Assembly (NCBI GenBank): GCA_947478395.1
Contig: CANJVR010000001.1
Span: forward strand, 224,001-288,000
Source of the DNA: Opitutia bacterium
Lineage (GTDB): Bacteria > Verrucomicrobiota > Verrucomicrobiia > Opitutales > Opitutaceae
Length of the DNA: 64,000 nucleotides
Reading direction: 5' to 3'
Numbering within the stretch: position 1 is the stretch's first letter; each line of letters opens with the position of its first letter. Both the position numbers and the translations under genes were made by a program. This document shows, in pieces, positions 601 through 63,248 of the stretch. The notes beneath the pieces are model-generated. The model saw only the letters and a list, made by a program, of their open reading frames with translations, was not told the DNA's origin and ran no database searches.

Positions 601-608
601 ACGGGGAG

Positions 609-621
609 CGACTGGTTCGGC
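609..621 (-). repeat. Truncated attC remnant (R'' box and spacer only)
   Basis: Minus strand GCCGAAC-CAGTCGC matches the start of the other attC sites, then similarity stops just before the sulfatase stop codon. Confidence 0.6.
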
Positions 622-628
622 TCTGGTT

Positions 629-934: not shown

Positions 935-995
935 GGCTAACGTTCAAGATGCGCCACGGCCACGCGCGGCCGTGGGCTTTAGCGTTTGGTTAGGC
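935..995 (-). repeat. attC site 1 (divergent loop variant)
   Basis: + strand GGCTAAC...GTTAGGC, 61 bp, central CACGGCC/GGCCGTG stem. Confidence 0.85.
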
Positions 996-1272
996 TGTTT
1001 TCATTTTCAACGGCCCGCCGCAATACTGGGCCCATCAGAATCCAAGCCGATCCGCCGCTGAGGCAAAATAGCGCCACCCCATTCGCCAGGAGATTCAGCC
1101 AAAATGAACTTTGCCGTGGGAAGATAATCGCTGCGATGCGATCCGACAAAAACCACGAGCAAATCATCGTCCCGAGAACCGTCGAAAGAAAGGAGGACTT
1201 ACGCCGAACCTCAGTCGCGAGCCGCTTCCGTTCGACTTCGGGAATATCCCGATATTTTACCCGCGTGGTCAT
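979..1272 (-). CDS. Cassette 16: small membrane protein, hypothetical
   Basis: 97 aa, two hydrophobic segments, fills the inter-attC space. Confidence 0.7.
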   Translation of the reverse strand: MTTRVKYRDIPEVERKRLATEVRRKSSFLSTVLGTMICSWFLSDRIAAIIFPRQSSFWLNLLANGVALFCLSGGSAWILMGPVLRRAVENENSLTKR

Positions 1273-1281
1273 CGCATTTTT

Positions 1282-1342
1282 CCCGAGCGTTCAAGCTGAG
1301 CCCCGGCCGCTCGGGGCCGTTGGCTTTGGCGTCTGGTTAGCC
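1282..1342 (-). repeat. attC site 2 (loop A; core GTT mutated to GCT)
   Basis: CCCGAGCgttcaagctgagccccggccgctcggggccgttggc...GTTAGCC. Confidence 0.9.
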
Positions 1343-1345
1343 TTT

Positions 1346-1561
1346 TTAGAGCACAGCGATGAATTCATCGGCGGTAACACCAGCTTGGCGCAGTACACCA
1401 GAAAGCGTGCCTATCTTCACTTCACGATGCAAAGGGACTACGCAGCCAACCGAACCGCGGCGAAGCATAACATGGCTGCCCTTTTGACGTAATTGCTGAA
1501 AGCCGAGTCTTTCAAGGGCTCGTACGATTTCGGACCCAGAAAGATGCGGAAGCTTAGGCCC
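1346..1561 (-). CDS. hicA: Cassette 15: HicA-family toxin; expected start codon reads GGG (possible pseudogene); absent from ORF track
   Basis: Manual translation (G)PKLPHLSGSEIVRALERLGFQQLRQKGSHVMLRRGSVGCVVPLHREVKIGTLSGVLRQAGVTADEFIAVL; RQKGSH and VPxH motifs; overlaps hicB stop. Confidence 0.85.
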   Translation of the reverse strand, partial: GPKLPHLSGSEIVRALERLGFQQLRQKGSHVMLRRGSVGCVVPLHREVKIGTLSGVLRQAGVTADEFIAVL

Positions 1562-1760
1562 CGATCGCTACCTCGAACGTGGTCAAAAGCGCGCTTCCCG
1601 CGACAGGAACCGAAAACTCGGACAGATAAAGCTCCGTCGCCTCACGCAGATTTTCGAGCGCCTGACGCAGATCTTCGCCTTGAGTCGTGGTGCCGGTTTC
1701 TGGATTGAGAGCGACGAATCCGCCTTCCTCGGCGGGCGTGAGAACTGCGGTGAGAGTCAT
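1554..1760 (-). CDS. hicB: Cassette 15: HicB-family antitoxin (short form)
   Basis: 68 aa, EEGGFVA..TQGEDLRQALENLREATELYL signature. Confidence 0.88.
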   Translation of the reverse strand: MTLTAVLTPAEEGGFVALNPETGTTTQGEDLRQALENLREATELYLSEFSVPVAGSALLTTFEVAIGA

Positions 1761-1806
1761 AAGCTCAACTTGGCGGAGAAAGATGTGCCGTCAATCGGTC
1801 CTTTCC

Positions 1807-1867
1807 GACTGACGTTCAAGCTGAGCCCCGGCCGCTCGGGGCCGTTGGATCTGGCGGCTGGTTAGGC
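1807..1867 (-). repeat. attC site 3 (loop A; core GTT mutated to GTC)
   Basis: GACTGACgttcaagctgagcc...GTTAGGC. Confidence 0.9.
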
Positions 1868-2124
1868 TTTTTTCTCATCGTGGAATCGCCCCAACGCCAC
1901 CGAGGCGACTCGCCTTTCCAATAGCAGAACACGATCAAGACCGCAGCCAGCGCCGCACTGTAGGTTGCAAAAAACAACGGGTGTTTCTCAGCCGCGGGTG
2001 CGCCCGCCGCGAGCGCGACAAAAAACGCGCCCATCACGAGCCAACCCTGCCAACGCGCGGGCAGGCCCCAGCCGTAACCATAGGTCTTTGCAGGAAACCA
2101 AGCTTCGTCTTTTGGGAGGGACAT
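1816..2124 (-). CDS. Cassette 14: small membrane protein, reads through attC
   Basis: WFPAKTYGYGWGLPARWQGW N-terminus, two TM segments, attC-encoded tail PNQPPDPTAPSGRGSA. Confidence 0.8.
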   Translation of the reverse strand: MSLPKDEAWFPAKTYGYGWGLPARWQGWLVMGAFFVALAAGAPAAEKHPLFFATYSAALAAVLIVFCYWKGESPRWRWGDSTMRKKPNQPPDPTAPSGRGSA

Positions 2125-2138
2125 AAAATATTTCTGGA

Positions 2139-2200
2139 GCCGAACGTTTCAAGCTGAGCCCCGGCCGGCTGCGGCCGTTGGCTCTGGCGGCTGGTTAGCC
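2139..2200 (-). repeat. attC site 4 (loop B)
   Basis: GCCGAAC...ccggctgcggcc...GTTAGCC, 62 bp. Confidence 0.92.
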
Positions 2201-2494
2201 TTTTTCTTCGAGCGCATCCCGAATCCATTTGGGATCGCGCCTGCAATCCAGCACGCGGAACACGACGGCTTCTCCGGAGGTAGTTCGGTAATAAACGGCG
2301 AAGGGAAAACGCTGGGCCAACAAACGATGAAACCCAAATCGCACACCGTGAATTCCAGTATGGAGCGTCAGTGAGTCGATCTCGGCGAAGAGACTGTCGA
2401 AGAAATAATCTCCCACCCCGGGTTCTTGATGATCGTAGAAAATTCTAGCAGACGCCAGATCCTCCAATGCCGAGCGCAGAAGCCTAACCTTCAT
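2195..2494 (-). CDS. Cassette 13: RelE/ParE-family toxin
   Basis: 99 aa, ALEDL..FY..G..F, RFPFAVYY, VLDCRRDP; ATGA overlap with upstream antitoxin. Confidence 0.88.
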   Translation of the reverse strand: MKVRLLRSALEDLASARIFYDHQEPGVGDYFFDSLFAEIDSLTLHTGIHGVRFGFHRLLAQRFPFAVYYRTTSGEAVVFRVLDCRRDPKWIRDALEEKG

Positions 2495-2706
2495 TCAAAA
2501 CGGCGCCGCAGCTCTTTCTTCGCGTCAGCCCATTCGAGCACCTCAATCCGACCAGCTGCGAAATCCGTCTCGGTTTTTTTAAGCGCTTCTTGATGCCGCG
2601 CGGGACTCTCAAAACTGCTCTCGTCGCCCGCAATATCGCTCCAGAGCGCTTCTATGATGCGGAGCTTTTCGTCAGGTGGAAGCTTGCGAAGTTCGGCGAG
2701 ACTCAC
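2491..2706 (-). CDS. Cassette 13: addiction-module antitoxin
   Basis: 71 aa, LPPDEKLRIIEALWSDI ... WADAKKEL. Confidence 0.85.
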   Translation of the reverse strand: MSLAELRKLPPDEKLRIIEALWSDIAGDESSFESPARHQEALKKTETDFAAGRIEVLEWADAKKELRRRFE

Positions 2707-2752
2707 GACCCAAAACTAGTGGGCTAAACCGTGCCCGCAAGGGTTCTTTCTT

Positions 2753-2813
2753 GGCTAACGTTCAAGCTGATCCCCGGCCGCTCGGGGCCGTTGGCTCTGG
2801 CGGCTGGTTCGGC
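2753..2813 (-). repeat. attC site 5 (loop A)
   Basis: GGCTAAC...GTTCGGC, 61 bp. Confidence 0.92.
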
Positions 2814-3211
2814 TCCCTTTTCTTTTCGAAGCAGGCCCAGAGCAACAGTCCGTAAGCGAGCGCCCATAGGTAGTACCCGATTTGGATCCCCCACTCCCTC
2901 TGGGAACTGGACGCGAATGAGTAGGCGTTCATTGCGAACCAGGAAAGCACATGAACTAACATCAAGGTAGCGAGAATCCGATTGAAGACGCCACCACCAG
3001 CACGGGTAAAGGATAGCGCGGCAAGAACCACGAAGGCCAAATTCGTCAGGGCGAAAGCAGAGTAATACGGACTTTTAATAGGCTCTTTGCACAACAAGCC
3101 CCAGCACATCTCTTCGCACCGGAAGCCCGTGTAATCATGATACGCAGGCAGAAAGTGCGATGCGCCGAACACCAAAAGAGCAATGACCGCGATGATCGGA
3201 CTTATTTTCAT
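2762..3211 (-). CDS. Cassette 12: membrane protein, reads through attC
   Basis: 149 aa, about four hydrophobic segments, IGYYLW motif, attC-encoded tail. Confidence 0.75.
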   Translation of the reverse strand: MKISPIIAVIALLVFGASHFLPAYHDYTGFRCEEMCWGLLCKEPIKSPYYSAFALTNLAFVVLAALSFTRAGGGVFNRILATLMLVHVLSWFAMNAYSFASSSQREWGIQIGYYLWALAYGLLLWACFEKKREPNQPPEPTAPSGRGSA

Positions 3212-3272
3212 ACCTAATGTTCAAGCTGAGCCCCGGCCGGCTGCGGCCGTTGGCTCTGGCGACTGGTTAGCC
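3212..3272 (-). repeat. attC site 6 (loop B; core GTT mutated to ATT)
   Basis: ACCTAATgttcaagctgagcc...GTTAGCC. Confidence 0.9.
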
Positions 3273-3437
3273 CGTTTTTCGATCCAGTAGCAATGTACGA
3301 ATCTTGTTTGGATTATGGGTGGCGCGGAGCGTTCGCCGCACGATCCGTGACAGACTTGAGCGTTGGCTGTAGCGGCTCGTTGGCCCGTTTGGGGGCTTGA
3401 GTCAAAGTGCGCGTGGGAATTTGTTGGTGGAAACGCG

Positions 3438-3764
3438 ATGACGAAACCCACCTGCCCGGAATGTACGATGGAAGAAGTGATCAGCCATGCCGAGCGCTGG
3501 GAATGTGCGACGTGCGGTCATGAATGGCCGAAGCAGGCAGTGCCTGAGGTGGCGCGCGTGGTGAAAGATGCGCACGGCAATGTGCTGACCGACGGCGATA
3601 GTGTGGTCCTGATAAAAGACCTGAAGCTGCGGAGTTCGTCAGGCGTGCTGAAGCAGGGAGCAAAGGCGAAGAACATCCGCTTGGTGGAGGGCGATCACGA
3701 AATCGACTGCAAGATCGACGGCACCGCGATCGCACTCAAAGCGTGTTTTGTGAAGAAGGCTTGA
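3438..3764 (+). CDS. Cassette 11: PhnA/YjdM zinc-ribbon protein, inverted relative to the array
   Basis: CPEC..CATCGHEW zinc ribbon and VKDAHGNVLTDGDSVVLIKDLK..IRLVEGDHEIDCKIDG..LKACFVKKA. Confidence 0.9.
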   Translation: MTKPTCPECTMEEVISHAERWECATCGHEWPKQAVPEVARVVKDAHGNVLTDGDSVVLIKDLKLRSSSGVLKQGAKAKNIRLVEGDHEIDCKIDGTAIALKACFVKKA

Positions 3765-3779
3765 GTGATCGAATTTCAG

Positions 3780-3820
3780 GCCGAACGTTTCAAGCTGAGC
3801 CGCTGAGCGCCTGGTTAGGC
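3780..3820 (-). repeat. attC site 7, internally deleted (41 bp)
   Basis: GCCGAACgtttcaagctgagcc joined to ..gcgcctgGTTAGGC; central stem-loop missing. Confidence 0.8.
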
Positions 3821-4276
3821 TGTCTGGTTTTCATCTAAAACTAAACGAAATGGCGTCATGGTAGATTTCGTAAATCCCGATCGCTCATAGAATTTTATGG
3901 CGGAATAATTCACGCTATCGGTCAACAATGTAACCCTCCCACAACCGCCATCGCGCGCCTGCAAAATTGCTGCCGCCAAAATAAGATTACCGAAGCCTTT
4001 GCCTCTGTGTTCCGGCGAAACAACCATATCTTCAAGTATCGCCACTTTCTGACCCATAAAAGTGCTTACAGTGTAAAGTATACTCACCATTCCAACAATT
4101 TCACCTTCGACACAACCAACTATAATATGCCCGTAAACTGGGTTTTCTAAAATCAACCTAAGGCCAGCTGCTTGACGCATCGCATCGGCCCTGAACTCGG
4201 CTTCTTGCTCAAAAAGCAGTTTAAGCAGTGCGCAAAGATTGGGCACATCGTCGAGGGTGGCGAAGCGGGTCTTCAT
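3815..4276 (-). CDS. Cassette 10: GNAT-family N-acetyltransferase
   Basis: VVSPEHRGKGFG acetyl-CoA motif A and NYSAIKFYERSGF motif B; AT-rich sequence. Confidence 0.9.
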   Translation of the reverse strand: MKTRFATLDDVPNLCALLKLLFEQEAEFRADAMRQAAGLRLILENPVYGHIIVGCVEGEIVGMVSILYTVSTFMGQKVAILEDMVVSPEHRGKGFGNLILAAAILQARDGGCGRVTLLTDSVNYSAIKFYERSGFTKSTMTPFRLVLDENQTA

Positions 4277-4281
4277 TTTTT

Positions 4282-4341
4282 GCCTAAAGTTCAAGCTGAG
4301 CCCCGGCCGCACGGGGCCGTGGCTCTGGCGTCTGGTTCGGC
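4282..4341 (-). repeat. attC site 8 (loop A variant; core GTT mutated to TTT)
   Basis: GCCTAAAgttcaagctgagcc...GTTCGGC, 60 bp. Confidence 0.88.
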
Positions 4342-4348
4342 TCTTTTT

Positions 4349-4711
4349 TCATTCGGGCCGTGGCGGCAGAGATGCGAGCAGCTTGGTCTCCTCCTCGGGA
4401 AAAGTGAGTGCGTATTTTTCTTTGTATTCGCGGATCTGCCATAACACCTGGACATCACCAGGGCGCTTGTATCCGAGCGCATCAAACCACTTCACCGACG
4501 TAGGCAGTGTGCTTTCGAGCATCGTCAAAACCTGCTCCGGATTATTTTTTCGCAGGAGCTTCGCGTGCACGAGGTGCTCTCCGACGACCGATACACTGAG
4601 ATTCTGAAGGACCGCAGTCGGTCCTTTGGCGATGACTATCCAACTGACACCCGCCCCAGCGACGGCGCCGACAAGACTTGATACTAGCGCGACTACAATT
4701 GTGGAACGCAT
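4349..4711 (-). CDS. Cassette 9: hypothetical protein with N-terminal hydrophobic anchor
   Basis: ATG at 4711 just after the attC core; fills the cassette. Confidence 0.7.
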   Translation of the reverse strand: MRSTIVVALVSSLVGAVAGAGVSWIVIAKGPTAVLQNLSVSVVGEHLVHAKLLRKNNPEQVLTMLESTLPTSVKWFDALGYKRPGDVQVLWQIREYKEKYALTFPEEETKLLASLPPRPE

Positions 4712-4723
4712 AAAATAAATTTC

Positions 4724-4783
4724 CGCCAACATTCAAGCTGAGCCAAGGCCGCTCGGGGCCGTGGCGCTGGCGTCTGGTTGGGC
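4724..4783 (-). repeat. attC site 9 (loop A, several substitutions)
   Basis: CGCCAACattcaagctgagcc...GTTGGGC, 60 bp. Confidence 0.88.
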
Positions 4784-4793
4784 TTCTGGTTCA

Positions 4794-4982
4794 TCAGGTG
4801 AATCGGAAAACTAGTCCGGGGAAAAGAAGTCCGCAGACAGCGAGCATCGCGCCACAGAGCATCACGAGATACGCCAGCATATACTTCCATTTTGCTTCGT
4901 CTTTCCTCTTCCGCATTCGCGCAAAGAAGATCGCACCAACGATGAAGAGGAGGCTGCCAATCGCGATATCTTGTGGGTTCAT
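4794..4982 (-). CDS. Cassette 8: small two-TM membrane protein
   Basis: MNPQDIAIGSLLFIVGAIFF..; 62 aa, TM-basic loop-TM. Confidence 0.7.
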   Translation of the reverse strand: MNPQDIAIGSLLFIVGAIFFARMRKRKDEAKWKYMLAYLVMLCGAMLAVCGLLFPGLVFRFT

Positions 4983-4995
4983 GGGGGTCTTTTTT

Positions 4996-5056
4996 GCCCA
5001 ACGTTCAAGCTGAGCCACGGCCGCTCGGGGCCGTTGGCTCTGGCGTCTGGTTCGGC
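4996..5056 (-). repeat. attC site 10 (loop A)
   Basis: GCCCAAC...GTTCGGC, 61 bp. Confidence 0.93.
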
Positions 5057-5304
5057 TCTTTATTCTTTCTAAAACCAGAGATCAGGAGAAATCGCAGAAT
5101 GCCAATCCCGCCGATGGAAAGCACGAGGCCAACAACTACGAGGCTCTTGCGGAACCAGCCATCATGACCATCCCCAAGCCAAAGAAGCGCCACGCCAACT
5201 AAGTGGACTGCCGATCCGACACCAAACATCCTCCAGGTTCTTCGCTTTTGAACACGCCGTTGCTCCGCCTCTTCCTCACTCTTCAAAGCGCCAGTTGTGG
5301 TCAT
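5005..5304 (-). CDS. Cassette 7: two-TM membrane protein, reads through attC
   Basis: 99 aa, tail EPNQTPEPTAPSGRGSA. Confidence 0.75.
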   Translation of the reverse strand: MTTTGALKSEEEAEQRRVQKRRTWRMFGVGSAVHLVGVALLWLGDGHDGWFRKSLVVVGLVLSIGGIGILRFLLISGFRKNKEPNQTPEPTAPSGRGSA

Positions 5305-5316
5305 AGGGTTTTCTTT

Positions 5317-5377
5317 GCCGAACGTTCAAGATGAGCCACGGCCGGCTGCGGCCGTTGGCTCTGGCGTCTGGTTAGGC
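5317..5377 (-). repeat. attC site 11 (loop B)
   Basis: GCCGAAC...GTTAGGC, 61 bp. Confidence 0.93.
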
Positions 5378-5970
5378 TCTTTTTTCGGTCGAAGGATGAT
5401 CCACTCCACCAAAAGAAGGTTTGGCACCCAACAGAGCCAACCCAGCGCTGGATAAAAAGAATCGAAGGGGAGACCTAACGCGAAGAAAACGCCGAGGTAG
5501 ATCCGGAGCGTAACGGCCGCGAAGGTAAGGGCAAAGCAGCGGATCGCCCACATCCGGTGATCCTCATAATCCCGCTCCCAAACCGCGAGCAACGCCCTGT
5601 AGCCGGTGTAGAGCCACAGCAGCGCGAGAACCGCAAAGCCGAGCTTCGACACCAGGCCTCCGTAGGCAACGAACGCCATCGCCAATCCTGTGACTCCTCC
5701 GAAAAGAACGGCCGAAAAGTAGGCGTAGCCGATCTTCCGATGGATCGCACGACGCTCTCGCACCGCCGGCAAAAACTGGAACGGTCCGGTCACCAATGCG
5801 ACGACCGAACAGAACACGTGGGCCAGGATTCTCACTCGATGCGCCGCATAGACCGACTTCATCGCGGGCGCTACCGTTGCGCCAGGCGTGAGCACACCGT
5901 AGGAGTAAATGGCATAGCCCGCCACGCCGAGACACAGGAGAAGCACAACAGAGAACGTAAGCTTCTTCAT
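5326..5970 (-). CDS. Cassette 6: DUF2306-like membrane protein, reads through attC
   Basis: GPFQF..HRKIGYAY, HRMWAIRCFALTFAAVTLR, WLCWVPNLLLVEW motifs. Confidence 0.85.
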   Translation of the reverse strand: MKKLTFSVVLLLCLGVAGYAIYSYGVLTPGATVAPAMKSVYAAHRVRILAHVFCSVVALVTGPFQFLPAVRERRAIHRKIGYAYFSAVLFGGVTGLAMAFVAYGGLVSKLGFAVLALLWLYTGYRALLAVWERDYEDHRMWAIRCFALTFAAVTLRIYLGVFFALGLPFDSFYPALGWLCWVPNLLLVEWIILRPKKEPNQTPEPTAAAGRGSS

Positions 5971-5973
5971 TTT

Positions 5974-6034
5974 GCCTAACGTTCAAGATGAGCCACGGCC
6001 GCTCGGGGCCGTTGGCTCTGGCGTCTGGTTGGGC
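5974..6034 (-). repeat. attC site 12 (loop A)
   Basis: GCCTAAC...GTTGGGC, 61 bp. Confidence 0.93.
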
Positions 6035-6037
6035 CTC

Positions 6038-6331
6038 TTATTTTCGCATGATTCCAAAGCGAGGATGGCGCTTGTGGTGGCGAAGGACAAGGACGCGAAC
6101 TCCCGAGGAAACTTCTCGAAAGAGGAGATGATAAGGAAATGTCGCCATATTGGCTCGGCGTAATCCGTGTGGCGCTGGATGAAATCGTCGCGGCTCGCGC
6201 GCCACTTCTCCAACCAAAGTATCCAGCTCCGAGAAAAATCGGTCAGCCAACGGAGCTCCGCCTTCTTCCTCGTAGTACCTGAGAACCGCTCGCACATCCT
6301 TCTGAACGAGCCGATGAAAGATAAGCCCCAT
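6038..6331 (-). CDS. Cassette 5: RelE/ParE-family toxin
   Basis: 97 aa, YYEEEGG.LADRF, FPYHLLFR, VLRHHKRHP. Confidence 0.88.
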   Translation of the reverse strand: MGLIFHRLVQKDVRAVLRYYEEEGGAPLADRFFSELDTLVGEVAREPRRFHPAPHGLRRANMATFPYHLLFREVSSGVRVLVLRHHKRHPRFGIMRK

Positions 6332-6334
6332 CGC

Positions 6335-6547
6335 TTACCGACCCAACTCTTGCTTCAAAGTAGACCACTCCACGCCGGACGCAGGGTCTGATTCTAATTC
6401 TGCATCCCTGCGAAGCGCCTCGGCGATCCCTTCGTCTTCGTCGGATAGGACGCCCGGAAGAGTCTGCAATAGATCCGACGCGAGCACAGCCCGCTCAGCG
6501 TCAGGCAGACTCATGACTTCTTTCGTGAGTTCTTGTAACCGCGTCAT
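6335..6547 (-). CDS. Cassette 5: addiction-module antitoxin
   Basis: 70 aa, LPDAERAVLASDLLQTL..EALRRDAEL. Confidence 0.85.
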   Translation of the reverse strand: MTRLQELTKEVMSLPDAERAVLASDLLQTLPGVLSDEDEGIAEALRRDAELESDPASGVEWSTLKQELGR

Positions 6548-6591
6548 GCCTCGACTGTGAGCTCAGATGTTCCGGACGCCACTCTTTCTTT

Positions 6592-6652
6592 GCCCAACGT
6601 TCAAGATAAGCCACGGCCGGCTGCGGCCGTTGGCTCTGGCGTCTGGTTCGGC
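6592..6652 (-). repeat. attC site 13 (loop B)
   Basis: GCCCAAC...GTTCGGC, 61 bp. Confidence 0.93.
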
Positions 6653-6655
6653 TCT

Positions 6656-7030
6656 TCAGGTTTTGCAGTCATTCGGAAAATGGTCAGCGAAATCTCCGAT
6701 CACTCTCAACTCATCGGGCTCGCACAGGCGTGGAAGCTTATTCGATGGGTGCCTCTCCTTCCACAAACGGAGGATATCGTAGTAATATGGGTCCGCGCAT
6801 CCGACACCGACTACGAACGCGCCTTCATCCTCAGCCGCGTGAACCACAGGCACGATAAGCCAAACCGTGAAGCCAATGTGCCGATTGCGGAAACCGAGCC
6901 ACCGAATCTTCTCAAGGGGGCGACTAAAATCTAAGAAATAAGGTCCTTCAGCGGTGAAACACCCCGTCTTACTTACCGCATAGTCGTCCGGACGACTATG
7001 AACCCTAAACAGCTGAATTCGCATGGGCAT
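6656..7030 (-). CDS. Cassette 4: hypothetical protein
   Basis: 124 aa ORF filling the cassette; no family recognised. Confidence 0.7.
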   Translation of the reverse strand: MPMRIQLFRVHSRPDDYAVSKTGCFTAEGPYFLDFSRPLEKIRWLGFRNRHIGFTVWLIVPVVHAAEDEGAFVVGVGCADPYYYDILRLWKERHPSNKLPRLCEPDELRVIGDFADHFPNDCKT

Positions 7031-7042
7031 GGCGCCAGTTTT

Positions 7043-7103
7043 GCCGAACGTTCAAGATGAGCCACGGCCGCTCGGGGCCGTTGGCTCTGGCGTCTGGTTA
7101 GGC
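7043..7103 (-). repeat. attC site 14 (loop A)
   Basis: GCCGAAC...GTTAGGC, 61 bp. Confidence 0.93.
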
Positions 7104-7678
7104 TCTTTTTCTGCTTTTCGAATAATCATGATGCGCTGCAGAGCGATCGCCTGATCAAAATGATCGCTATTCTCGACCAACGATTGAAGAGCGTAGGCGC
7201 TCTCCGAACAGTCGGCGATCGCGAATAAAATAAAACCCCACGAAACGCTTAGACTAAAGAAAACGTAATAGCTATGGAGGCCTGCGAAAATCCATGAGGC
7301 TACAAAAGCGATCAGAAGATATGATCCAACTGAGTTCTGCTTTCTTGGATCAAACTGAAGACGGGCTGCGATACGGATCCCTATCGCTGATCCCGCAATA
7401 CCAAATAGAAGCCACCAATCGCGCCTGTGCAGTGCCCATAGAGAAATAAAAACTGTCGGAACGACGAGATAAAGTAGCACCAAAGCGCCGAAGATTTTTC
7501 GCCGAAACCCTCTAATCAAATGACTAGGCTCTCCAATAACACATCTAAAACCCATTGTTCGACGCTGCACGCCGGTCACAAATTCAGCGTGGGTAACGCC
7601 CCGATTCGCGTTCGCGATGCTTACTTCTTGAATCTTATTAAACTCCGATAAGAAAGCGGCGTGAGCTTGGTCGTTCAT
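7052..7678 (-). CDS. Cassette 3: four-TM membrane protein, reads through attC
   Basis: ATG at 7678; hydrophobic core; tail EPNQTPEPTAPSGRGSS. Confidence 0.75.
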   Translation of the reverse strand: MNDQAHAAFLSEFNKIQEVSIANANRGVTHAEFVTGVQRRTMGFRCVIGEPSHLIRGFRRKIFGALVLLYLVVPTVFISLWALHRRDWWLLFGIAGSAIGIRIAARLQFDPRKQNSVGSYLLIAFVASWIFAGLHSYYVFFSLSVSWGFILFAIADCSESAYALQSLVENSDHFDQAIALQRIMIIRKAEKEPNQTPEPTAPSGRGSS

Positions 7679-7688
7679 GGTCGGTTTT

Positions 7689-7749
7689 GCCCAACGTTCA
7701 AAATGAGCCACGGCCGGCTGCGGCCGTTGGCTCTGGCGTCTGGTTGAGC
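7689..7749 (-). repeat. attC site 15 (loop B)
   Basis: GCCCAAC...GTTGAGC, 61 bp. Confidence 0.93.
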
Positions 7750-7756
7750 TCTTTTT

Positions 7757-8296
7757 TCATCCGAGATTGTAGGGACGCTCTTTCTTCGCCGCGAACTCCC
7801 TCAAAAACTCCCGATCCGCATCTGTACCCGAAACAGTCATGCCCACGCCCTGCTTGATCTGCTCTTGCTCGATGAGATAGACCCGGTCACGAACGCGCTC
7901 ACTCAGATCTGCTAACGAAAACACCACGTCCTTCGCGTCGTCGTATGTGACCGAGCAAAGCAGATAGCGGTGAATGGCCTTATTCCTCTGACCGTAAGCG
8001 ACGGACAAATCATCGAAGAGAGACTGATCGATGACGCCCTCAGCCAATGCGCACTTATAAATCTCACGCTCGGGAATCATCGGATCGCCGTCTTCTTGTT
8101 TGACGAGGCGTTCGTCGATCTCAGAAGAGCGCTTTTTCAACTGTGCCTGTAGGACGAGACCCGTGCGTAACAGGCCATCAATCAAATTCGCTTGGATGAC
8201 GATGCACTCCAGGGCGGCGCGCTTCTCGAAAGCGACATTCAAGAGATGGGCGGCAGCGGCAAAGCCCTGAAGGAATCGTGAGAACGAAGGAGGCAT
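7757..8296 (-). CDS. Cassette 2: hypothetical protein, putative HEPN domain
   Basis: Helical-looking protein with RNKAIH (Rx4H) motif and upstream LECIVIQANLIDGLLR helix. Confidence 0.65.
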   Translation of the reverse strand: MPPSFSRFLQGFAAAAHLLNVAFEKRAALECIVIQANLIDGLLRTGLVLQAQLKKRSSEIDERLVKQEDGDPMIPEREIYKCALAEGVIDQSLFDDLSVAYGQRNKAIHRYLLCSVTYDDAKDVVFSLADLSERVRDRVYLIEQEQIKQGVGMTVSGTDADREFLREFAAKKERPYNLG

Positions 8297-8302
8297 TTCT
8301 TT

Positions 8303-8363
8303 GCCCAACGTTCAAGATGAGCCACGGCCGCTCGGGGCCGTTGGCTCTGGCGTCTGGTTCGGC
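8303..8363 (-). repeat. attC site 16 (loop A)
   Basis: GCCCAAC...GTTCGGC, 61 bp. Confidence 0.93.
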
Positions 8364-8367
8364 TCTT

Positions 8368-8829
8368 TTAACGACATATGCTGCTGCAGAGTCCTGCTTC
8401 CTTTAGTTTCCGGCGAATGATCGCCTTCATAAGAGAGACGGCAAGATTGAGCTCCGCGTCTCCGACCTGGTGGTCAATGAGCTTATCTTCCAAGTGACAA
8501 ACGCATCTATTTGCGGCGACCAGAACTTTCCACAACGCCTCACAATCTTCGTCGGTAGCAGGCAGGAGGATGGCCCGGACTTTGCACCTGAACTGCGGCG
8601 TGGATGGCTGTAGAGTAGTCCACTTCACGGTGTGAATGCTAATCGAGAACCGCTCACACAACGCGCGACATGTGGCTATTGCGGCGTCCATACATCCGCG
8701 GTAAATCCTACCTTCTTTGTCGTGTCCGACGGCGCTTTTGTAGTCGGCCACATCAGCAAATGACTCCAGGACACACCAGCGATGGTCGAGATGGGGGACT
8801 TCGTCAGCTGAGATTTTACTCTTCTTCAT
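8368..8829 (-). CDS. Cassette 1: hypothetical protein, possible divergent HEPN-like fold
   Basis: 153 aa, DAAIATCRAL helix and ANRCVCHL motif. Confidence 0.6.
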   Translation of the reverse strand: MKKSKISADEVPHLDHRWCVLESFADVADYKSAVGHDKEGRIYRGCMDAAIATCRALCERFSISIHTVKWTTLQPSTPQFRCKVRAILLPATDEDCEALWKVLVAANRCVCHLEDKLIDHQVGDAELNLAVSLMKAIIRRKLKEAGLCSSICR

Positions 8830-8835
8830 GTCTTT

Positions 8836-8875
8836 GCCGAACAGTGTTATTCACCCGAACTAGGTTTGTTACTGC
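8836..8875 (-). other. Putative attI recombination site
   Basis: Minus strand cagTAACaaacctaGTTCGGGtgaaTAACactGTTCGGC; core GTTCGGC is complementary to R'' of attC16 and lacks the rest of an attC. Confidence 0.7.
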
Positions 8876-9204
8876 TACACAGCGGTGAAAGGCGGGGGAC
8901 GCTAGGCATGATGTTCTTTATGACCGTGTCCGCGCGCTGGATTACTCTTCCTCCCAGTTGAAGCGCCGCTGCCGCGAGCCAGACGCGCGCGGGTATCGCA
9001 AGCAACCTCAATGCCGAAAAGAACGGCCGCCGCTTTCGTTTTTTAAATCGGGTCAGTACGTACGATCAAATCGAACGGACTGCTCGCGCCGGTTTTGGGG
9101 TTTGAGTTGGGGGTGCGGCGAGGGGGCGCGGGGTGCGGAAGGGCATCGCGCTGCGGCACTCCCGAACAGGGGGCTGGGCTGGGCGGACGTAGGAAAGCTG
9201 AGGC

Positions 9205-9230
9205 CGGCAGGCAGGGACGCCTGCCGCTAC
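9205..9230. repeat. Solo half of GTAG-type REP
   Basis: cggcaggcagggacgcctgccgctac, same arm as at 25525, 49766 and 63186. Confidence 0.8.
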
Positions 9231-9321
9231 GTAGAGCGGGGACGGAGACACGCTCACCGCTCAAAAATTGCAGGGACGCGCCGGTTGAATACTCAGCCCA
9301 CGTCCAGCGGGCGGGCTTACG

Positions 9322-25364: not shown

Positions 25365-25480
25365 ACGGGGCGGCACGCGCGATTCTGATCGGGACGAGGA
25401 GAGCGAGCGAGGCCTGAGCCCAACCCGCCCTGCGGGCCCTCGTCTCCTCGAGCGGTTTGAGGTTTCCTTGGCTGTATTGT

Positions 25481-25550
25481 GTAGCGGCAGGCGTCTCTGC
25501 CTGCCGAAGCGAGTACGCCGAACCCGGCAGGCAGGGACGCCTGCCGCTAC
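25481..25550. repeat. 70-bp GTAG REP doublet (REPIN/MITE core)
   Basis: gtagcggcaggcgtctctgcctgccg-N18-cggcaggcagggacgcctgccgctac. Confidence 0.85.
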
Positions 25551-36960: not shown

Positions 36961-36993
36961 CGAAGCTGCACCCCAAGCGTAGCCGCTAACGAC

Positions 36994-37063
36994 GTAGCGG
37001 CAGGCGTCCCGGCCTGCCGGGTTCGGCGGCCTCGTTTCGGCAGGCAGGGACGCCTGCCGCTCC
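36994..37063. repeat. 70-bp GTAG REP doublet
   Basis: Same family as 25481, reverse orientation judged by its flanks. Confidence 0.85.
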
Positions 37064-49693: not shown

Positions 49694-49721
49694 GCGGTCT
49701 AATTTTCCGTGGCCGCTCCAT

Positions 49722-49791
49722 GAAGCGGCTGGCGTCTCTGCCTACCAGGTTCAGTGTTCTCACAACGGCAGGCAGGGACGCCTGCCGCTAC
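49722..49791. repeat. 70-bp GTAG REP doublet (left arm degenerate)
   Basis: Same family as 25481. Confidence 0.8.
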
Positions 49792-63110: not shown

Positions 63111-63248
63111 AGCGGTTTGAATTTTTCCGCGGCCGTGTAGCGTAGCGGTAGGCGTCTCTGCCTGCCGGTTTCGGCGTCATCGTTTCGGCAGGCAGGGACG
63201 CCTGCCGCTACGTCGCCAACGGTTAGGCTTTCGGTTAAACCGCTCGAG
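63107..63248. mobile_element. 142-bp MITE-like element with 70-bp REP doublet core (63142-63211)
   Basis: Terminal inverted repeats ctagagcggttt / aaaccgctcgag (11/12). Confidence 0.65.

Follow-up and report, generated by a model that had tools for sequence, protein, structure and literature searches.

A sedentary integron array with two attC loop types, two probable age layers and no integrase gene found in cis in an Opitutia bacterium

The stretch of DNA analysed here, a window of 64,000 nucleotides from a freshwater Opitutia bacterium of the family Opitutaceae (genome G000, assembly GCA_947478395.1; window G000:C1:224001-288000), carries a 61-base repeat in 16 copies between its positions 935 and 8363. 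Judged by their sequence, these repeats are attC sites and the array is of integron type. More specifically, the locus is a sedentary integron array that has kept its attI site, in which no integrase gene was found in cis and in which two age layers can probably be distinguished. attC sites are defined by an R’ (RYYYAAC) and an R’’ (GTTRRRY) box on the bottom strand (PMC5027507). The + strand of the window corresponds to the attC bottom strand, and the cassettes are encoded on the - strand. The AAC/GTT core pairs in 14-15 of the 15 aligned sites, C or G often stands at the fourth base of the R boxes, and decay of these boxes is seen in s2, s3, s6 and s8 (sites are numbered s1 to s16, with s16 closest to attI). 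The elements of an attC hairpin are all present, namely R boxes, an L-box stem, extrahelical bases, an unpaired central spacer and a short variable terminal structure (VTS). A hairpin model drawn from these same sequences pairs 85% of the cells, compared with 20-47% in slid controls, and leaves two T bulged on the R’’ arm; covariation is no higher than in shuffles. Individual predictions give the full fold for s15 and s1, the upper hairpin for s16, s4 and s6, and a misfold for s3 and s5. The start of a cassette matches its own R’’ box exactly in six of the eight proximal cassettes and in one of the eight distal ones, against 565 of 679 elsewhere. A search of Rfam returned no match, and at the score used no further complete attC was found elsewhere in G000.

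At the leader end of the array lies an attI core composed of an R box and a conserved 12-base motif (Table 1). For comparison, 400 genomes of the family were searched (186 with a match and 239 with the arm pattern) and the regions around the best matches and the largest arrays were fetched, in which 945 other attC sites were called by a detector that made no calls on reversed sequence. The motif is identical upstream of intI in 10 of the 16 intI-linked loci of relatives (with the attC sites on that strand), an identity that argues that the attI site of the window is real, and it occurs as a single copy in G000. No TIGR02249 match above the cut-off was obtained in this genome, the IntI proteins of 17 relatives matched only two Xer-like genes (27-38% identity), and no intI remnant was found beside attI. 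Since the assembly is 98.8% complete in 9 contigs, the integrase gene is best described as not found rather than absent. The locus has the attI site of a complete integron and lacks the intI that would adjoin it; with at least two attC sites and no neighbouring intI it belongs with the CALINs, clusters of attC sites lacking an integron integrase (Cury et al. 2016, PMC4889954). A scan for the Pc promoter gave one weak sigma-70-like match overlapping the start of the first cassette and none upstream.

Across the fetched loci the attI core is found in 40 copies, 18 of them with intI or a fragment of it within 2.5 kb and 22 without (for two of the latter less than 2.5 kb of sequence is available, and one copy may not be genuine). 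One relative, G019, has two intI-less attI cores (contigs C33 and C57) and an intI on another contig, which suggests that several satellite attI platforms served in trans may exist in the family. Separately, a REP-like inverted repeat family with many copies in the genome is present in the window at 9197-9232, 25480-25548, 36993-37061, 49721-49789 and 63141-63209, one copy of which adjoins the place where intI would lie.

Table 1 Features of the array and its cassettes (positions are those of the window).
Feature	Position	Strand	Remarks
attI core: R box and conserved 12-base motif (8840-8851)	8836..8851	-	no intI beside it
attC s16	8303..8363	-	loop A, family-standard arms
attC s15	7689..7749	-	loop B
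attC s14	7043..7103	-	loop A
attC s13	6592..6652	-	loop B
attC s12	5974..6034	-	loop A; different neighbour in run X14
attC s11	5317..5377	-	loop B (DUF2306 cassette)
attC s10	4996..5056	-	loop A, intermediate stem; cassette abuts attI in run X9
attC s9	4724..4783	-	loop A, decayed; one-base loss in common with s8
attC s8	4282..4341	-	loop A’ (plain A in X9 and X14), private stem C
attC s7	3780..3820	-	centre deleted
attC s6	3212..3272	-	loop B, private stem C
attC s5	2753..2813	-	loop A, private stem C; misfold predicted
attC s4	2139..2200	-	loop B, private stem C
attC s3	1807..1867	-	loop A, private stem C; misfold predicted
attC s2	1282..1342	-	loop A, private stem C
attC s1	935..995	-	other loop, diverged
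17th attC, truncated half	608..625	-	R’’ arm only; array end beyond PDZ-domain cassette (629-871)
ParE toxin and addiction-module antitoxin	6038..6547	-	cassette of s12; PF05016 E 2.4e-9, PF09720 E 3.4e-6
ParE-like toxin and addiction-module antitoxin	2195..2706	-	cassette of s4; PF09720 E 1.7e-11, PF05016 E 0.0013 (below cut-off)
HicA toxin and probable HicB-like partner	1346..1760	-	between s2 and s3; PF07927 E 3.5e-16
YjdM/PhnA-domain gene, reversed	3438..3764	+	in cassette of s6; PF03831 E 1.9e-28
DUF2306 open reading frame	5326-5970	-	cassette of s11

The initial annotation of this DNA had described two types of apical loop, A and B, that alternate along the array, and all 16 sites were found again where it had placed them, with their loops in the same order. 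Read from the attI end, the loops from s16 to s8 run A B A B A B A A A’, and from s7 to s1 they continue with a deleted centre, B, A, B, A, A and another loop. An origin of the B loop by inversion of A was ruled out, as B is not the reverse complement of A. The significance first given to the alternation (1.6%) was overstated: an exact permutation test on the number of switches, over the 14 sites of known type (nine A and five B), yields p=0.028 when the deleted s7 is ignored, p=0.050 when it is treated as a break, 0.042 if it was A, and 0.098 if it was B, the case suggested by the 22 bases that are identical in s7 and s4, a B site. Scored by the longest alternating run, p is 0.03-0.08; permutation inside the two stem blocks described below gives p=0.038 (28/735), and s10-16 taken alone alternate perfectly (p=0.029 for seven sites). 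All these values are post hoc, from a single array chosen after the pattern had been seen, and the window also contains AAA and AA runs. The ABABAB order is most likely the work of chance, at about 3-10% for one array.

Relatives bear directly on the mechanism that the initial annotation had proposed for this order, in which each new cassette would take its stem from the latest site and its loop from the one before. In 45 arrays of at least 8 sites (758 sites), neither neighbours nor sites at lag 2 deviate from expectation (Stouffer z -0.95 to 1.68); one lag-3 measure reaches z 3.05, perhaps through duplicated blocks like the one in L165, where six cassettes are duplicated in tandem. In the 21 of 46 arrays that hold at least two types of at least three sites each (464 sites, with several arrays drawn from one genome or genus), same-type neighbours number 141 against 139.9 expected (sd 7.0) and same-type pairs at lag 2 number 129 against 134.1. 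The order of types is thus random in these larger arrays, a result that the initial annotation had named as contrary to its proposal, whereas an effect of the window's strength would, by hand calculation, give about 64 same-type neighbours. Four of the five loci from G121 had no array of at least 8 sites; the fifth, L137, was recovered and is not multi-type.

The loop types themselves are not private to the window. Among the short types of the family, loop A is the most frequent, with 30 of the 76 sites of this form and a further 15 that differ from it by one base, and the inner arms of the s11-16 consensus recur elsewhere in 15 A sites and 2 B sites. The B pattern matches 3 times in genome contigs and 16 times in metagenome contigs, once in each locus. 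Twelve of these lie in attC sites, in 10 distinct arrays (L086, L089 and L095 belong to a single array, which counts once); six of the 16 metagenome matches and one of the three genome matches are not attC and were discarded. In one such locus, L097, the order is other-A-A-A-B, and among loci picked for A or B six of nine neighbouring A/B-type pairs are AA. Sites s11-16 are thus family-wide A and B types on standard arms, for which no local template is needed, and the distinctive trait of this lineage is its richness in B only. Ordered local templating can still point to the perfect alternation of s10-16, to the standing of the window as an outlier at lag 2 and to loop B, very rare outside the lineage yet present here in five of 16 sites. 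Set against the 21 multi-type arrays without alternation, the AAA and AA runs of the window, the order in L097, the AA pairs elsewhere, the family-standard proximal arms and a loop type that travelled with its cassette (cassette 12, below), these points leave it highly improbable.

A and B loops also occur, with compensatory changes, on a second arm type (L079, L081, L085, L096, L069 and L070), so that loop and arm combine freely across the family and not just in this array. Elsewhere, L132-L136 (genome G376) hold about 150 attC arm matches with nearly invariant arms, a small set of discrete stem types and a hypervariable centre. The viral contigs L098 and L099 carry attC sites of this family, the array of L098 comprising about 10.

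In addition to the loops, the initial annotation had reported that the stems vary with position in the array and not with loop type. This positional signal is borne out: GAT or AAT together with stem A occurs in s11-16 and s1, GCT together with stem C in s2-6 and s8, and s9-10 are intermediate, with no association between loop and stem (Fisher p=1.0) and clear clustering along the array (p=0.0014 for GCT and p=0.003 for stem C). The gradual drift that had been suggested fits less well than two blocks with a boundary at s8-10. All four combinations of loop and stem are present in the window. Stem C is private to this block, as none of the 945 other sites carries it in this attC form outside s2-8, and a VTS starting with C is found in only two of them. 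Two same-genus stem-C matches (G236:C295 and G170:C145) have no attC arms and were not counted. Stem C disrupts one stem pair, and two A sites folded with it (s3 and s5) are predicted to fall out of register; an allele that breaks a pair and misfolds A sites is unlikely to have come from active donors, and its presence on both A and B sites means that arm and loop must have recombined at least once.

Further signs point to exchange between sites after their insertion. Beyond the loss of exact matches noted above, the variable fourth base differs in five of the eight distal cassettes, compared with 62 of 679 elsewhere (p=0.0003; p=0.001 when set against the rate in distal thirds). Moreover, the left arms of s4 and s7 are identical over 22 bases, R’ box and an extra T included. 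This identity spans the IntI crossover point, which argues that it was not copied by integration or by templating at cassette creation. The block could alternatively have been captured as a batch, without later conversion. In the donor lineage, A and B templates would have recombined once beforehand and would have borne stem C, and point decay would afterwards have produced the R-box mismatches. One template recombination would then suffice for all four haplotypes, distal thirds of other arrays likewise match less well (183/234, against 187/220 for proximal ones), and allele blocks together with distal ageing are seen in other arrays (L043 and L044, with an allele block in L043). However, point decay sits poorly with mismatches that concentrate on the allelic fourth base (5/8) and with an s4-s7 identity that spans the crossover point, and stem C was not found in any potential donor and is predicted to impair folding. 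We consider batch capture unlikely.

The window can also be compared with other strains from lakes. All or part of the stretch is held by 20 sequencing runs from 8 studies, of which 8 may be the source of this DNA; four runs were compared (X3, X9, X14 and X18), and uncovered stretches in X9, X14 and X18 were ignored unless a contig joins across them. Contigs of X3, itself a possible source and so not independent, show zero differences over the pieces listed (2160-3249, 3232-5040, 5355-6007, 6001-6638 and 7716-8325). The piece 6001-6638 puts loop A at s12 and loop B at s13 on a single contig; among the pieces listed none spans the array, and the order of the whole rests on the assembly. Runs X9, X14 and X18, from three other studies, have most of the distal block in common with the window. 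Given the agreement of X3 over these pieces and the sharing of most distal sites by strains from other studies, an assembly artefact is unlikely.

At the leader end the strains differ by whole cassettes. Cassette 10 abuts attI on a 319-base contig of X9 (5311 to 8831, depth 22), and this strain is without exactly the six alternating cassettes at the attI position. A second X9 contig (depth 17) links attI to the end of an s2-like site (1347/8833), with undetermined letters between them. In X14 (record 8), cassette 12 retains its A site beside an unrelated neighbour, with five other letters and no gaps, three of these letters lying in the gene; in this single case loop type behaves as a fixed property of the cassette, an outcome that the initial annotation had itself named as contrary to its proposal. 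X9 and X18 share the same intI-less flank beyond attI, and a further B-like site with a different flank is found on a contig in X9 and X14. Lake strains sharing the intI-less flank have at least two, and probably three, different first cassettes at attI. With a leader end that turns over by whole cassettes, any record of the order in which cassettes were created would be scrambled.

Cassette loss could in principle also shape the loop order, if deletion between near-identical neighbours (AA or BB) left ABAB except where a toxin-antitoxin cassette protects the pair. The simulated chance of at least 10 switches rises from 0.035 up to 0.82 when deletion favours nearest neighbours, but little of this effect remains (0.01-0.11) if deletion depends weakly on distance or if A makes up a larger share. 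The sole neighbouring pair with at least 30 identical bases (s2-s3, 36 bp) does flank the HicA module, and toxin-antitoxin cassettes resist loss (PMC11023631). Other arrays, however, are not short of neighbour identity (66 pairs against 61.7 expected at 40 bp; 24 against 28.7 at 50 bp), and the proximal block appears young. Survivor bias of this kind seems distinctly unlikely as the main explanation.

The account that we regard as probable is the capture of finished cassettes followed by short-tract conversion among the old sites, with the loop order left to chance. The newer layer (s11-16) would consist of finished cassettes, drawn from a lineage pool in which only A and B circulate as short attC types and placed at attI by an IntI that acted in trans or has since been lost; loop type would be a fixed property of each cassette, and the alternation may have been aided by cassette loss between identical neighbours. 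In the older layer (s2-8), short recombination or gene-conversion tracts would have copied the left (L’/R’) arm from site to site after insertion, stopping short of the four-base loop difference. In this way one private stem base may have reached both A and B sites, and R’ boxes may have been exchanged. The idea of local copying among attC sites thereby keeps its place for the old block, and the ordered rule for stem and loop does not.

Several observations weigh against this account. The window is an outlier among 46 arrays, both in the arm similarity of neighbours (z=4.6, next 2.6) and in identical VTS at lag 2 (z=4.2, next 2.7), and six of its lag-2 pairs share at least 40 bases where 1.17 are expected, a number reached in 0 of 20000 permutations, although this excess compounds the stem block with the alternation. 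Some sites escape the detector, among them s4 and s7 of the window, and adjacency is blurred as a result. Because no second array made up of A and B alone was found, the control arrays are inexact analogues. Five fourth-base mismatches in 8 junctions are also seen in one of the 41 other arrays, and an allele is just as clustered in L043; part of the pattern can therefore result from ageing or batch capture. Finally, a conversion tract of about 21 bases is short for RecA.

In a narrower form, conversion would be confined to the arm, in tracts of about 21 bases that stop at the hairpin loop, and would lock old cassettes in place through the misfolding allele; this is a serious possibility to which we give a little less than even weight. 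That sites are built or rewritten within the array, with the arm from a near neighbour and the loop from two sites back, is very unlikely, and the milder arm-limited conversion is the more likely of the two. Were ordered building true, the array would be a direct record of the cassette-making step, preserved in the absence of reshuffling by an integrase in cis.

The genes of the cassettes, on the - strand, comprise three toxin-antitoxin modules, a GNAT, a DUF2306 protein and a PDZ protein, and many open reading frames have no family assignment. The partner of HicA has DUF7387 as its sole match, below the cut-off. In G000 the HicA frame has no start codon (1559-1561), while X9, X14 and X18 differ at position 1560 and have one; from the sequence, the toxin may be silent in the G000 strain. 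None of the yjdM loci fetched has attC arms nearby, and the yjdM gene that lies reversed inside the array, in the interval 3272-3780, may for this reason be a recently captured chromosomal gene. PADLOC matched none of the 9 proteins submitted. No close orthologous cassette above 81% DNA identity was found in the 400 family genomes, most other matches in that search being yjdM homologues. Cassette homologues at 49-82% protein identity are accompanied by attC sites of other types, by remnants or by no attC at all, and are too distant for loop inheritance to be assessed from them. Several cassette open reading frames (2762-3211, 5005-5304, 5326-5970 and others) read through their own attC and end in a common tail peptide, the sequence of which is set by the loop type. 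Elsewhere in G000 (C7:109590-110720), two or three cassette-like genes lie between degenerate attC pieces, one of these pieces inverted, near a tRNA-like sequence.

Compared with known systems, the array resembles the CALINs in having at least two attC sites, no intI nearby or found in the genome, and cassettes mostly without known families (PMC4889954). It differs from the average CALIN in its recognisable attI core and greater homogeneity, and with 16 sites it is larger than most, as 6.6% of CALINs have more than 10; CALIN cassettes are described as mobilisable by integrases elsewhere, and homogeneous attC sites are described in the same paper (PMC4889954). Homogeneous attC sites, toxin-antitoxin cassettes, a variable leader end and a conserved distal part are shared with the sedentary Vibrio VCR arrays (Boucher et al. 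2006, PMC1382264). Unlike these, the present array has no integrase gene that was found, and its sites are short (61 bases) and of two discrete loop types. Within the family, the arrays of G376, G298, G038 and G048 have the same arm family and attI core and identical A-type sites, but their VTS are either of many types or long, and the types follow one another at random (loop B was encountered only where loci had been retrieved for it). A private allele block is visible in the window, and most integrase-linked relatives are without one. attC sites are taxon-specific (PMC8352920), integrase loss and CALINs are treated in bioRxiv 10.1101/2025.06.18.660453, and cassettes can be recruited by transformation (PMC12614218). 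Alternating attC types were not found in the titles and abstract openings searched, a coverage outside which subscription journals fall; three of the papers listed use the word ‘alternating’ a single time.

How cassettes gain their attC sites is presented as an open question (PMC4889954, PMC8618304), and a positional rule for attC acquisition would have been important; it fails in the relatives tested. The pattern is real, in an otherwise ordinary integrase-less integron array. Gene conversion among attC sites has already been proposed as a homogenising force (PMC1382264), and the remaining value of the locus is modest: it offers a natural case with testable traces of the conversion proposed in 2006, in the form of a private allele across two loop types and swapped R boxes, and it shows turnover of the leader end at attI without an integrase in cis.

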